Source of the DNA: Opitutia bacterium
GTDB taxonomy: Bacteria; Verrucomicrobiota; Verrucomicrobiia; Opitutales; T3Sed10-336
DNA: 64,000 bases
Assembly (NCBI GenBank): GCA_050506795.1
Contig: JBJHCF010000001.1
Coordinates: 128,001 to 192,000, forward strand
Reading direction: 5' to 3'
Below the pieces are notes generated by a model. That model did not search any database. It was not told the DNA's origin and saw only the letters and a program-made list of their open reading frames with translations. This document shows, in pieces, positions 1 through 4,198 of the stretch (the first letter of the stretch is position 1; each line of letters starts with the position of its first letter). The position numbers and the translations under genes are program-made.

Positions 1-2353
1 GGCTTTCGGCCCGACGAAGCTTGTCCGTTTCGTCGCCGGATTCGAGATAAACGAGCGGTATTCCGGCCTGCCGGGCGCGCACCGCCAGATGGGAGAGCAG
101 GGGGATCGGCTCGAGGACCACCAATCCGGTCACCGGGGCCGGGATGTCTTCATCACCGGTGGCCTTTGGCAAAAGCACGATGGTGGCCTCGGCACAATCT
201 TCTTTGATTTGCTCCAATCTTTCGACCGCGTTGAGGCGGCCGCGGGCAGTACCCGGCGCCAGGGGCTCACACGAGTGCTCGCCTGCGGTGTTGCCCTGTT
301 CCCGCAGCAACAGGCTGTTCAGTTTGGCCAGTTGAAAGACCAGGTCGCGACGCAGTTCCGCTTCACAGAACAGGCTGATGTCTTTTTCCGGGATGCCCAG
401 CGCTTGCCCTATGGTCTCGGCGGCGCGGCGAAACAGGTCGATAACCCGATCGGCGATGGTGTCGCACAACCTGCGAACGCGACCGATCGAAGCCTTCAGT
501 CTGGCGAGGGCGAGAGGGTCGGAGGCCCGGAAGCCCGGGAGGAGACTGTCGATTTCGTGGCGAATGGCGCGGATTTCTTCGGTCCAGGCGCCGTTCAGCT
601 CCATCTGCCGCAGGGTCAGGCTCAGCGTTTCCAGCGCCTTCTTCCATTGAAACCGTTTGGCGGATGTCAAACCGTTCAACAAGTCGCTGAGGGCGGGAAA
701 GGCGAAAGCTTCCAGTTCGATTTCCGCCAGCCGGAAGGCCTGGGCGGAATGGGCTTCGCGTTTTTCCGCTTCGGGGACCAACACAGCCCTCAGGTGGGTG
801 ACGGCATGAAATCGTTTGAAAGAGCCGGAAGCGCCTTGGGGGTTACGGGAAGAAATCTCGAGGAATCTCTGCAGAGCGGCCAGCCCGTCCCCGGAGAGCT
901 CCTCGCGCAGGGGTTCCAGGCGTTCGGCCAGGCTTTGGGTGTTGAAAAAGGTCTGCAGTTCGCGATGGAAGGTTTGAAATTCGGAGACAAATTCCGCCGG
1001 GTAGTCCCCGTTTTCGATCCTCGCGAGCAGTTTCTCCGAGGTCTGCAAATCCTCCGGTCCGGCGCAACGGTGAAGCTTGTTCTGGAGGGAGTGTTTGATC
1101 TCGTTCTTGAGCTCTTTGGGGATGTCGTTTCGGTGAGCGATATCGCGGATACGAGTCAAGGGTTCCGCCCGGGTAAAGGGGGTGTCGTACGACGGCAGGT
1201 TGGCATGGATACGCCGAAGAATCAGTGCGTTGTCGTCATTTTTCCAGGCTCGGAGTTTGTCGTCGATAGCGGCGCCGGTTCTGGCGTGGTGGCTTGGCCG
1301 GAAGTGCCGGGAGTCCTCGCGGCAGGGAATTCGGCCGGTGTGCAGCCAGCGCAGGTAAACTGCCAGAAAAGCCAGGTTTTCCGGCGGCAGGGGATCCGCG
1401 GATTCGTCCAGGAGGTGCTCGACCCCTTGCAGTTTTTCACGCCAGCTCCGGGCTTTCCGGTCGGTATCGATGAGGCGTGCGGCAAACGGGTCGGACGAAG
1501 ACGCGGCGGGGGAGGGGCGGGGCGAAGCAGGAGAATCCTCGTCCGTGCCGTGCGATTCGCCGATCAGGGCGGCCAGCCGGTCCCGTGACTCGGTCAGGCG
1601 CTCCGGTGGATCGGGCCAGACCTCCATGATGGCGCTACCTTGAAATTGTATCGCCTGCAGCCGTTCGATGAGTCCCCGAATTCCGCGGTCGTTTTCGCCT
1701 GCGGGACCGGTGAACAACGGAAGGTGGGCGTCACGGTCGCCGTAATTCTCATGCAGGTGGAGGTGAACAACCGGCACTTCAGGTGAAAGTCGGTCGAGGA
1801 ATCCCAGATAGTCGTTGCGAGTGGCGGCACAGAGATTGGCGTGACCCAGGTCGAAACAGAGGCCCACGTGGCGGTTTGGCAGCTTCGGCTGAGCCCGCAG
1901 AACCTTAAAGAACGCGTTGAAATCCTCGGGCCCGGTGAGGGGAGTGTTCTCCAGGGCCAGAACCACATTCATGGCCGCCGTTTGTCGAATCAGGGGTTCG
2001 ATTGCTTCCAGGAAAGCTTCCGGGCCCTGTTCGGTTTGCAAGTGAATATTGAATACAGCCGCACCGAGGTCGCGGGTCAACGCCAGGGCCGGTTCCGCCG
2101 GGACCGACTCTTCCGGTCGCAGCGGATCCAGCCCGAGGGGGGCGTGGACGGACAGGCGAATATCGTGGTCCCGAGCGGTTCGCCGGATCGCATCCCGCGT
2201 GTCCCGGTCGAGATCCGACTCGGTCCAGGTCTTGTCGGGGAACCACTCGAACGCCTTGAACCCGTGCGAAACCGCGAATTCAAAGGGCGCCATCAGCGCA
2301 GGAGCGAATGCGGCGGTTTGATTGCCGACACGGATTTCGAAAAGCGGCGTCAT
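1..2353 (-). CDS. TIM-barrel (xylose isomerase/AP endonuclease 2-like) + phosphoglucan, water dikinase (PWD/GWD3)-like fusion protein; partial, runs off window start
   Basis: Translated by hand from ATG at 2353 (MTPLFEIRVGNQTAAF...); the frame is open to the window edge and absent from the ORF track. N-terminal TIM-barrel motifs: LSVHAP, LALEN, LCFDLGHAN, HLHLHEN, DAHLPL, IMEVW. PWD motifs: SWREKL, AVYLRWLHTGRIPCREDSRHFRPSHHA, LPSYDTPFTRAEPLTRIRDIAHRNDIPKELKNEIKHSLQNKLHRCAGPEDL, KATGDEDI, and the phospho-His motif LLSHLAVRARQ (His codon 89-91). Confidence 0.9.
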   Translation of the reverse strand, partial: MTPLFEIRVGNQTAAFAPALMAPFEFAVSHGFKAFEWFPDKTWTESDLDRDTRDAIRRTARDHDIRLSVHAPLGLDPLRPEESVPAEPALALTRDLGAAVFNIHLQTEQGPEAFLEAIEPLIRQTAAMNVVLALENTPLTGPEDFNAFFKVLRAQPKLPNRHVGLCFDLGHANLCAATRNDYLGFLDRLSPEVPVVHLHLHENYGDRDAHLPLFTGPAGENDRGIRGLIERLQAIQFQGSAIMEVWPDPPERLTESRDRLAALIGESHGTDEDSPASPRPSPAASSSDPFAARLIDTDRKARSWREKLQGVEHLLDESADPLPPENLAFLAVYLRWLHTGRIPCREDSRHFRPSHHARTGAAIDDKLRAWKNDDNALILRRIHANLPSYDTPFTRAEPLTRIRDIAHRNDIPKELKNEIKHSLQNKLHRCAGPEDLQTSEKLLARIENGDYPAEFVSEFQTFHRELQTFFNTQSLAERLEPLREELSGDGLAALQRFLEISSRNPQGASGSFKRFHAVTHLRAVLVPEAEKREAHSAQAFRLAEIELEAFAFPALSDLLNGLTSAKRFQWKKALETLSLTLRQMELNGAWTEEIRAIRHEIDSLLPGFRASDPLALARLKASIGRVRRLCDTIADRVIDLFRRAAETIGQALGIPEKDISLFCEAELRRDLVFQLAKLNSLLLREQGNTAGEHSCEPLAPGTARGRLNAVERLEQIKEDCAEATIVLLPKATGDEDIPAPVTGLVVLEPIPLLSHLAVRARQAGIPLVYLESGDETDKLRRAES

Positions 2354-2389
2354 AAGTTCGAGGCGGCGATCGTGCGCCGGCCGGAGGAG

Positions 2390-2971
2390 TCAGCGGGTTC
2401 TCGCAGTGTTGAGTGCGTCGCGGGTGCGCCTCTTGAGAATCTTAAGTTTCTTTTCCACCGCCTTGAGATCTTTTTTTTGCATGCGGTCGAGAAAGAGAAT
2501 GCCATCTAGGTGGTCGACTTCGTGCAGCAAACAACGGGCGAAAATGCCGTCACATTCCAAGGTATGGGGCCGGCCTTCGAGGTCCTGAAAATCGACCTGG
2601 ATGCGTTCGGGGCGCTCGACTTCGCCGCGAATGTCCGGTATGGAAAGACACCCTTCCTCGGAAATGCTGGTTTTGGTGTCGGGAATCCGAATCATCGGGT
2701 TGGCGACCGCCAACGGCATGATCAGCTCAGCGGGAAGGTTGGAGCGGCCGTCGAGCTCGAAGTTGAACGCGTCCTGGGCATGACGGACGTCGACCACGCA
2801 GAATTGAAGCGCTTTCCCGATCTGCTGAGCGGCCAGGCCGATTCCGTCGGCCTCATGCATGGTTTCGACCATATCTTGAAACAGCGTCTTGAGGGCGGCA
2901 TCGAATGACTTCACCGGCTGGCCTTTTTGACGTAATCGGGGATCGTTGTACTGGACGATGGAAAGAATCAT
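2390..2971 (-). CDS. def: peptide deformylase
   Basis: Motifs GIGLAAQQ, EGCLS and HEVDH; start taken at MILSIVQYNDP. Confidence 0.97.
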   Translation of the reverse strand: MILSIVQYNDPRLRQKGQPVKSFDAALKTLFQDMVETMHEADGIGLAAQQIGKALQFCVVDVRHAQDAFNFELDGRSNLPAELIMPLAVANPMIRIPDTKTSISEEGCLSIPDIRGEVERPERIQVDFQDLEGRPHTLECDGIFARCLLHEVDHLDGILFLDRMQKKDLKAVEKKLKILKRRTRDALNTARTR

Positions 2972-3035
2972 GATTCTGCAGCGCAATTTACCGTAAAGCG
3001 GTTCGATGTCCAGACTGCGGAGAAATGCTTGCCAC

Positions 3036-3923
3036 CTACAGCCCGGACCAGATCAGGGCCAGAGGGACTACCGGAGTCAGGAGTAGGATTCGGGAGAGGC
3101 ACCGGGCTGACAGGCCGTCGACCAGGTGACCGAACTGCGCCAACAGGAATAGGTTCACCGCCGCCGCCGCCACCGCGATCAGGATGGGAGCGAAGTCAGC
3201 GTTGACCGGCATTGGCGCCAGCGCGAGCGCCAGCAGGGCCACGCCCGCACTGATCCAGGCCGACTTGAGATTTCTTTGGAAAAGCCGGGGTGCGAAAGGC
3301 TTTCTGGCTTTGAGCCGGGCGTTCCATTCGAGCACTGAGGACGTCCAGAAACCGAGGGTCAGCAACACCAGCAGCAGGACCAGCAGCGAAGCAACCATGG
3401 CAGGGGCGAAAACTCCGTTGACCAATACAAAAAGGCTGATCAGGCCAGTGCCGAAAAGCGCGTGAGCGATCTCTCGAGGCGCGAGGATTTCGATGTGGCG
3501 GAAGTAGAACAGCCCGCATACCAGATAGATGGCGGCTAACGAGCCCAGCATGAACAGCCCCGTTTGTTCCAGCCAGGTCATCCGGGTAGCGGTGATGATC
3601 ACCAGCGAGATCAGCACGAAGGGGCAGATGGTCAGCAGGGGCCAGCGCTCGGCGTTGAAAAATCCGATCCGCGGATCGCCGGATTCGAGGTTGGCGTTCC
3701 AAACCGCCCGCACGCTGCGGTTTAGGATCAGAAAAAGCCACATCGAACCGAAAACCACCATATAGTGCGGGCCGTGCAGTGGAACGTGCAGGATGTGGGC
3801 AAACAAGGCAAGCCACACGGCGATGACAGCCGGAGTGTCCAAAGCCATAAGCGCAAACCAGTGCCACAGAGGAATTTTCTCTAATGATTTCGATTCCAAT
3901 CTCGCACCAAAATGCTGGGGCAT
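3036..3923 (-). CDS. multi-pass membrane protein (distantly UbiA-prenyltransferase-like, function unknown)
   Basis: About 9 hydrophobic segments; ALDTPAVIAVW motif near the N-terminus; start uncertain (3923 ATG or 3938). Confidence 0.65.
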   Translation of the reverse strand: MPQHFGARLESKSLEKIPLWHWFALMALDTPAVIAVWLALFAHILHVPLHGPHYMVVFGSMWLFLILNRSVRAVWNANLESGDPRIGFFNAERWPLLTICPFVLISLVIITATRMTWLEQTGLFMLGSLAAIYLVCGLFYFRHIEILAPREIAHALFGTGLISLFVLVNGVFAPAMVASLLVLLLVLLTLGFWTSSVLEWNARLKARKPFAPRLFQRNLKSAWISAGVALLALALAPMPVNADFAPILIAVAAAAVNLFLLAQFGHLVDGLSARCLSRILLLTPVVPLALIWSGL

Positions 3924-3939
3924 TTCTTTCACTGGCAAG

Positions 3940-4198
3940 CGGAAACTGGCCGGGATTGGAGGGTGAACTTGGACCTTGCGGTGAATTTAGTGACTGAGAA
4001 AAGCCTGGAGTAGTGGGCTTCGCCGCGGACCATGCGATGTAAAAAAAATGTAATTGCTTGTAAGTTAATATATTATGGATTGAGTGGAGCTCTGGATACT
4101 GATTAGAAAGGGTGTGACTGGCAGTTGTTTTACTCAATTCAGTCAAAAACAGCATTCCCTGCAAACGCCGGCATCTTGTCATCGATCCATCGCCTTCT
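3940..4198. promoter_or_regulatory. AT-rich divergent promoter region
   Basis: Visibly AT-rich tract (tgtaattgcttgtaagttaatatattat) between divergently oriented genes. Confidence 0.4.

Follow-up and report, generated by a model that had tools for sequence, protein, structure and literature searches.

The closest described relatives of the system analysed here are glucan, water dikinase (GWD) and phosphoglucan, water dikinase (PWD, or GWD3; EC 2.7.9.5). In the dikinase mechanism, the β-phosphate is passed to a histidine before a pivot to the central domain (available sections of PMC13553574), and plant PWD requires a pre-phosphorylated substrate (excerpts of PMC13666283). According to those excerpts, prokaryotes have no known machinery for phosphorylating glucan, and the accessible portion of a 2026 preprint (10.64898/2026.09.25.754361) regards the presence of GWD as a hallmark of eukaryotes that make starch. 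Neither that portion nor the available sections of PMC13011383 mention a bacterial dikinase, and the word 'bacteri' is absent from the main text of PMC13553574. Here we describe a gene at the edge of a 64,000-nucleotide stretch (the window; positions 128,001 to 192,000 of contig JBJHCF010000001.1, an Opitutia bacterium) whose product, P0001, joins a metal-binding barrel, TIM1, to a PWD-type dikinase. Our literature search, with subscription journals and supplementary starch-evolution trees outside its scope, found no description of a bacterial GWD or PWD or of the TIM1 barrel, and databases label some homologues 'phosphoglucan, water dikinase' automatically.

A barrel fused to a PWD-type dikinase

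P0001 starts at an ATG at position 2353 of the minus strand and its open reading frame leaves the window at the edge. In the whole genome (G000, contig C1) it comprises 1151 residues (G000:C1:126898-130353) without an internal stop. The parts that lie in the window are as follows.

2..2353, minus strand: TIM1-PWD open reading frame (P0001), first 784 of 1151 codons; the rest lies outside the window, to G000:C1:126898
1562..2338, minus strand: TIM1, an AP_endonuc_2 (beta/alpha)8 barrel, residues 6-264 (Pfam, fold model, ligand alignment)
1490..1558, minus strand: linker rich in Pro, Ser and Ala, disordered, residues 266-288 (AlphaFold, motif position)
284..1489, minus strand: PWD-type all-helical central domain, residues 289-690 (homologue of the central domain of StGWD1; aligns in collinear order with PWD of plants and red algae)
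2..268, minus strand: start of the phospho-histidine domain, residues 696-784 of about 696-801 (Pfam; His755 codon at 89-91)

Pfam assigns AP_endonuc_2 to residues 24-260 (88.2 bits against a cut-off of 31.1), GWD1_pHisD to 698-801 and PPDK_N to 843-1146; it gives no match to CBM20 (PF00686) at E<=1 and none to DSPc. AlphaFold models the whole protein with a mean pLDDT of 89.9, falling below 50 in linker residues 269-285, and the barrel alone with a pLDDT of 94.5 and a pTM of 0.92. A sequence-only reading of this DNA had described an in-frame barrel-linker-dikinase fusion, and its description is accurate in detail: each motif that it quoted is present once (SVH 68-70, ALEN 133-136, DLGH 168-171, HLHEN 199-203, DAH 208-210, MEV 243-245), as is its Pro/Ser-rich linker (residues 271-288, window 1490-1543).

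The fusion recurs widely. A protein search with residues 1-700, a query that includes the barrel and is therefore biased to fused forms, matched 608 proteins; all 119 others listed carry the barrel in frame, joined by a linker of 9-113 residues (median 30). Eighty-nine of them share the four-domain architecture of P0001 and 10 carry a second, C-terminal barrel as well; 19 end after the central domain and one after the phospho-histidine domain. In GTDB, where an alignment was used as the query (a single-protein query matched nothing), 235 stretches encode a relative; 79 loci were retained, and the fusion is present in 69 of these, in several phyla, while four start at a contig end and are not judgeable. 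The barrel exists solely as a separate reading frame in six of the 79 loci; had homologues always been separate genes, this would have spoken for misassembly. In-frame barrels in the listed homologues and fusion in 69 of 79 GTDB loci show that the TIM1-PWD fusion is genuine and is neither chance nor misassembly. A lost stop or misassembly at the linker was rejected likewise, given fused homologues in many genomes. A Logan contig of run X1 covers window positions 1-4000 with 0 differences, though it may itself be the source assembly and not raw reads. Two further arrangements were seen: a TIM1-PWD-TIM2 fusion of about 1490 residues, TIM2 being the second barrel (L009:3277-7785 and L010:9715-14184; the form of the 10 homologues above), and P0288, which reads TIM1-central-His-TIM2 without an ATP domain and is either a genuine double-barrel form or an assembly deletion.

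The dikinase part is of the PWD type, as had been proposed. Residues 285-1145 are collinear with the PWDs of Cucurbita and Porphyridium, at 36% identity over 951 columns and 35% over 921, respectively, and the central, phospho-histidine and C-terminal ATP-grasp domains follow in the order that PWD requires. A profile of the central domain matches the structures of its StGWD1 counterpart at E 4e-10; these structures were not among the matches listed in the whole-model fold searches, the link being the profile match. The catalytic H755 and the ATP-site residues K847, R937-S939, E943, D944, E1029, D1127 and E1129 are invariant in 86/86 homologues, as are R668 and E735, the glutamate ahead of His755. 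In a FastTree phylogeny of 114 rows (143 prepared; the 29 omitted are all GWDs), PWD types separate from GWDs with a support of 100 and P0001 falls on the PWD side, two Opitutia/Opitutales proteins being its nearest rows, which makes an Opitutales host probable.

The same tree gathers 38 CBM20-bearing proteins in one clade (support 84), whose sister group is the main bacterial clade (96), while three TIM1-fused proteins, two of them named bacterial records, lie outside both (88). CBM20 stands at the N-terminus in 41/46 scanned PWD relatives with other long N-termini. Since it was seen on none of the TIM1-fused bacterial PWDs and its bearers form one clade, CBM20 may be a eukaryotic addition. 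A GWD tree of 43 rows places 22 long GWDs, of which those with names are eukaryotic, in a single clade (93) that lies among or next to bacterial GWDs. Because the PWD and GWD trees each hold bacterial and eukaryotic members, the GWD/PWD split exists on both sides; these are quick trees, and which way the genes passed between bacteria and eukaryotes does not follow from them. In two further relatives, P0347 and P0359, the PWD-type central domain is preceded by a CBM45-like (Ig_N_CWD1) domain and not by CBM20 or TIM1.

Metal site and family of the barrel

The sequence-only reading had suggested modelling the barrel and searching for its fold. The search places TIM1 in the xylose-isomerase-like superfamily and does not single out a function: MJ1311 leads (Z 25.0, root-mean-square deviation 2.7, 238 residues aligned), followed by an AP endonuclease (23.6), a psicose-producing epimerase (22.2) and TTHB071 (22.1), and E. 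coli endonuclease IV (EndoIV) gives Z 20.9 (deviation 3.2, 246 aligned). By sequence, the closest matches are MJ1311, TTHB071, endonucleases IV and the model of the phosphodiesterase CbiR; in the ESM Atlas, TIM1 matches only generic AP_endonuc_2 clusters. TTHB071 reportedly has phosphatase activity.

The metal site is more informative. When TIM1 is aligned by MAFFT and hhalign with EndoIV (E. coli Nfo from the K-12 record, about 20% identical), all nine ligands have a counterpart, listed here with their codons in the window.

2144-2146, minus strand: H70 (EndoIV H69)
2042-2044, minus strand: H104 (EndoIV H109)
1949-1951, minus strand: E135 (EndoIV E145)
1850-1852, minus strand: D168 (EndoIV D179)
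1841-1843, minus strand: H171 (EndoIV H182)
1757-1759, minus strand: H199 (EndoIV H216)
1730-1732, minus strand: D208 (EndoIV D229)
1724-1726, minus strand: H210 (EndoIV H231)
1622-1624, minus strand: E244 (EndoIV E261)

EndoIV has a nine-residue, three-zinc site in which H69, H109, E145, D179 and E261 are named as ligands and E261 activates the water (available part of PMC5636811). The nine TIM1 residues are conserved in 119/119 fused copies and in 109-110 of 110 stand-alone copies (120 matches, from which 10 longer than 330 residues were left out), so that the full-looking metal site noticed earlier proves to be near-invariant throughout the family. EndoIV H182, H216, D229 and H231 we take to be the other zinc ligands, and from the alignment we infer that the TIM1 ligands cluster in three dimensions. 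Near-invariant aromatics (W43, F214 and W246) follow the barrel strands, probably on the active-site face as judged from topology.

Since all nine EndoIV ligands map onto TIM1 while two sugar epimerases have fewer of them, the barrel is likely to be a three-metal phosphoesterase. The earlier list of possible functions is narrowed by the same ligand set: a phosphoesterase-type activity is favoured, and it is because of the three-metal site that the isomerase, epimerase and lyase roles on that list become less likely. A sugar isomerase, epimerase or lyase of the glucan pathway would fit the automatic JGI and NCBI names, the fold matches and the hhalign score to epimerases, and yet UlaE and YcjR, which have the core metal site in common with TIM1, lack some of the extra EndoIV-type ligands that are invariant in it: UlaE has no equivalents of H104, H171 and D208/H210 in hhalign, and YcjR none of H70 and H104, although for YcjR the alignments, at about 20% identity, disagree. 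An epimerase is not known to be required anywhere in glucan phosphorylation, and we consider such a role quite unlikely.

The likeness to EndoIV also raises the reading of TIM1 as a DNA-repair AP endonuclease, an accidental passenger or an assembly artefact, for which the ligand set and one NCBI record named endonuclease 4 could be cited. It is very hard to reconcile with the constant linkage to GWD genes described below, with hundreds of fused homologues, and with the absence of the nfo model both from the matches at E<=0.001 and from the NCBIfam matches; EndoIV R37 is not kept. We consider it highly improbable. Orthology to Nfo itself (model TIGR00587) was rejected on the missing model match and on R37. 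Orthology to CbiR was rejected as well: NF041277 scores 51.3 bits against a cut-off of 105, and the recurrent neighbours are glucan genes, with no cobamide genes nearby.

In a TIM1 tree, the barrel changes between fused and alone 18 times, at least 7 of them forced by starred branches; some of the splits may be frameshift errors. A complex prediction for residues 1-670 of this genome's own GWD with TIM1 gave no verdict either way (score 0.00).

Gene order around the two dikinases

The genomic context connects TIM1 to GWD. In 52 of the 66 GTDB loci with room for it, the gene immediately upstream encodes a GWD-type dikinase with CBM45-like domains. A GWD-type gene lies within 54 of the 79 loci; of the remaining 25 draft genomes, 21 have one elsewhere (75/79 in total). 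The association was also viewed from the opposite side, to avoid the bias of a fused query, in a set of 80 metagenome loci chosen by their GWD gene, 47 of which have at least 900 bases downstream: the next gene is TIM1 in 38/47. Among the 40 loci of this set with a full TIM1, the barrel is fused to PWD in 12 and followed by PWD in 3; 17 have no PWD within 1.3-5.8 kb and 8 are too short, which leaves a stand-alone TIM1 without PWD behind it in 17/32 informative loci. PWD was not found in three related genomes having GWD and TIM1. No GWD-TIM1 fusion occurs among 120 listed long GWD relatives, which is weak evidence, the named members being eukaryotic.

Downstream of PWD lies TIM2, a divergent second barrel with an invariant H/E/D set and an hhalign probability of 95.9 to TIM1; its profile finds no sequence relative in the PDB. 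Of the 79 loci, 55 contain it, as do 11 genomes among the 24 whose locus does not; in the GWD-picked set it follows 11/12 complete PWD genes (the twelfth runs into a contig end) and does not occur in any of the 17 loci without PWD. No TIM2 was found in 7/9 genomes with a missing or truncated PWD against 6/70 others; all are drafts, and the nine probably represent two or three lineages, with L070 and L071 judged from the end of the reading frame only. Further neighbours in the 79 loci are GH13 (29), GT5-type genes (21, four of them shorter genes on the opposite strand), GH57 branching enzyme (11) and DUF4912 (9). The conserved order is thus GWD, TIM1 (fused to or followed by) PWD, TIM2 and then GH13, GH57 or glgA. 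Since, seen from the GWD side, TIM1 follows GWD even without PWD and TIM2 follows PWD only, this operon consists of two modules, GWD-TIM1 and PWD-TIM2, and P0001 represents its two middle members fused. That these two genes adjoin in the operon is the most likely origin of the fusion.

The GH13 gene after TIM2 encodes about 435 residues (L003:5955-7259 and 28 other loci) and has the eukaryotic glycogen-debranching glucanotransferase domain as its best Pfam match. At six loci (for example L029:13038-15386 and L055:13052-15418), TIM2 and GH13 are fused in a protein of about 780 residues.

A recurrent shorter form (19/119) consists of TIM1 and the central domain and ends about 6 residues after the latter; some may be fragments. 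Proteins of this kind include P0017, P0019, P0023, P0040, P0057, P0067 and P0075, and the genes located are the following.

L005:3509-5593: TIM1 and central domain only
L012:9358-11733: TIM1 and central domain only
L017:1091-3181: TIM1 and central domain only
L026:10132-12201: TIM1 and central domain only

The histidine and ATP part of a PWD was not found elsewhere in the genomes of this form (4/4 tested).

These arrangements bear on the earlier statement that the barrel replaces the CBM20 module of PWD, which is misleading because TIM1 tracks the GWD-type dikinase instead: it is a free-standing gene family with a GWD-type gene as constant partner, occurs in genomes without a detected PWD, and is retained where PWD has lost its histidine and ATP domains. 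A related possibility is that TIM1 reads or targets phosphoglucan in place of CBM20 and brings PWD to C6-phosphorylated chains. TIM1 does occupy the place that CBM20 holds in 41/46 of the other long relatives, it is fused in 69/79 loci, and the excerpts of PMC13666283 have plant PWD depend on pre-phosphorylated chains; against this, TIM1 stands alone with all its ligands in loci and genomes without PWD, and the invariant E244 is equivalent to the water-activating E261 of EndoIV. Such a reader appears very unlikely. A purely non-catalytic CBM replacement was rejected as the main reading on the same two grounds, the ligands kept by stand-alone copies and the invariance of E244.

It is also conceivable that TIM1 is a three-metal phosphoesterase with a small or protein substrate (glucose or maltose phosphates, ADP-glucose, or the phospho-histidine of the dikinase) in a recycling or regulatory role. 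The same nine ligands would fit, the characterised phosphoesterases of the family act on diesters (EndoIV, CbiR; excerpts of PMC7733943), and glycogen synthase often adjoins. TIM1, however, is tied to the GWD gene and not to glgA or glgC, it stays fused to a central domain of the glucan-acceptor type after the kinase is lost, and it keeps the aromatics W43, F214 and W246. We therefore regard a small or protein substrate as unlikely.

Relatives occur in Nitrospirota, Desulfobacterota-like deltaproteobacteria, Verrucomicrobiota, anammox Planctomycetota, Chloroflexota and Acidobacteriota; both dikinase types are found in anammox Planctomycetota, Nitrospirota, sulfate-reducer-like bacteria, Verrucomicrobiota and other bacteria. 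The distribution is patchy: a PWD-type match is present in 3/11 genomes of the same family and 0/29 other genomes of the same order, and TIM1 in 0/300 other genomes of the phylum, sampled at random.

The Opitutia genome itself has a GWD-type gene (G000:C1:57602-60637; StGWD1 match at E 1e-79) and a TIM2 on C62 with 15/15 checked invariant residues. GT5 and GH57 genes lie on C40 and a second GT5 on C26; glgC scores 423 bits against a cut-off of 424.9, and a phosphorylase was also found. DSPc, the laforin/SEX4-type domain, has no match in this genome (97.8% complete), nor does the debranching-type GH13 of about 435 residues by tblastn. G000:C40:26599-33949, with glgA, a DUF4912-like reading frame and a GH57 branching enzyme, is the displaced tail of the conserved operon; it adjoins genes that we take from their sequence to be gap- and pgk-like. 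A peptide deformylase gene (window 2390-2986, same strand) ends 37 bases upstream of P0001 and is possibly co-transcribed; it does not recur beside homologues at other loci. Elsewhere, a reading frame converging on the GWD gene (L081:8517-9377) presumably has a metallo-beta-lactamase fold (RNase Z-like), about 8 kb from a gene pair that by its motifs we take to be VTC-like and connected with polyphosphate (L081:572-2106), and a secreted-looking protein of 1274 residues with two runs of what are presumably RCC1-like repeats is encoded 1.6 kb downstream of a TIM1-PWD gene (L001:7428-11252).

A candidate glucan phosphorylation cycle and its known counterparts

Architecture, ligand conservation, gene order and co-occurrence were observed directly. 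Based on these data, we propose, with somewhat better than even confidence, that P0001 combines a PWD-type glucan dikinase with a phosphatase, TIM1, for the phosphate of storage alpha-glucan or phospho-maltodextrin, most likely the phosphate that GWD adds. By analogy, the GWD-type enzyme would phosphorylate C6 of the glucan. In P0001, the C-terminal 865 residues would autophosphorylate His755 from ATP, swivel, and phosphorylate the pre-phosphorylated chains, by analogy at C3; the assignment of C6 and C3 to the enzymes is by analogy alone. Hydrolases, such as the operon GH13, would then open the chains, and TIM1 and TIM2 would hydrolyse the phosphate esters via a metal-bound hydroxide. TIM1 would be paired with GWD and TIM2 with PWD, filling the role that SEX4, LSF2 and laforin have in eukaryotes, and the central domain could serve TIM1 as a glucan-binding carrier where the kinase has been lost. 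The write/erase role suggested by the sequence-only reading thus appears plausible as a candidate.

Several observations weigh against this proposal. Fold scores fail to separate phosphoesterases from sugar epimerases, and the hhalign probability is higher for UlaE (94.6) than for EndoIV (45.4). By MAFFT, 7/9 ligand positions map in YcjR, only H70 and H104 missing, although alignments at about 20% identity disagree for this protein. TIM2 is not reliably alignable to EndoIV, and its D and H are adjacent where D-x-H would be expected. TIM1 is not the next gene in 9/47 GWD loci (in one, L097, GWD itself is split), and the co-occurrence counts are phylogenetically non-independent. In this genome, the parts of the system are scattered and do not form one operon; the neighbours of P0001, def upstream and an aldo-keto-reductase-like reading frame downstream, are both unrelated to it. 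Lastly, a kinase and a phosphatase fused on the same polymer risk a futile cycle.

A more complete scheme can be put forward only tentatively, and we hold it to be doubtful: an operon-encoded cycle in which TIM1 is the C6-phosphatase beside GWD and TIM2 the C3-phosphatase beside PWD, both of a new three-metal class, and from which eukaryotic GWD and PWD derive, CBM20 and laforin-type erasers having come later. What has been found appears to be a widespread variant of a GWD/PWD-type system with a candidate new enzyme class, and it suggests that many uncultured bacteria reversibly phosphorylate storage glucan by means of an undescribed kind of phosphatase. If this is true, some bacteria phosphorylate their storage glucan and the origin of the eukaryotic starch dikinases becomes testable; TIM1 would provide a second structural class of glucan phosphatase, small, easily assayed and possibly C6- or C3-selective, and soluble bacterial GWD, PWD and phosphatases could find use in enzymatic starch modification.

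Among known proteins, EndoIV (Nfo) is like TIM1 in its fold and in 9/9 metal ligands, but unlike it in sequence (about 20% identity, no nfo match, R37 not kept) and in having a DNA-repair context, which TIM1 does not. CbiR, TTHB071 and MJ1311 are the closest matches in sequence or fold, and CbiR illustrates that the AP_endonuc_2 superfamily can hydrolyse phosphoesters other than those of DNA (available part of PMC7733943). To SEX4, LSF2 and laforin, TIM1 would bear a functional resemblance only, as a candidate that has no DSPc domain. Plant and algal PWD have the central, histidine and ATP domains in collinear arrangement, with 35-36% identity across 920-950 columns, whereas P0001 is bacterial, has no CBM20 and begins with a metal barrel, and some of its relatives add TIM2 at the C-terminus. 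The cycle of GWD, PWD and SEX4/LSF2 (laforin) offers the closest overall parallel, with two dikinase types, glucan hydrolases and two candidate phosphate removers on the bacterial side; unlike it, the bacterial system is operon-encoded, and its candidate erasers are AP_endonuc_2 barrels in place of dual-specificity (CX5R) phosphatases.

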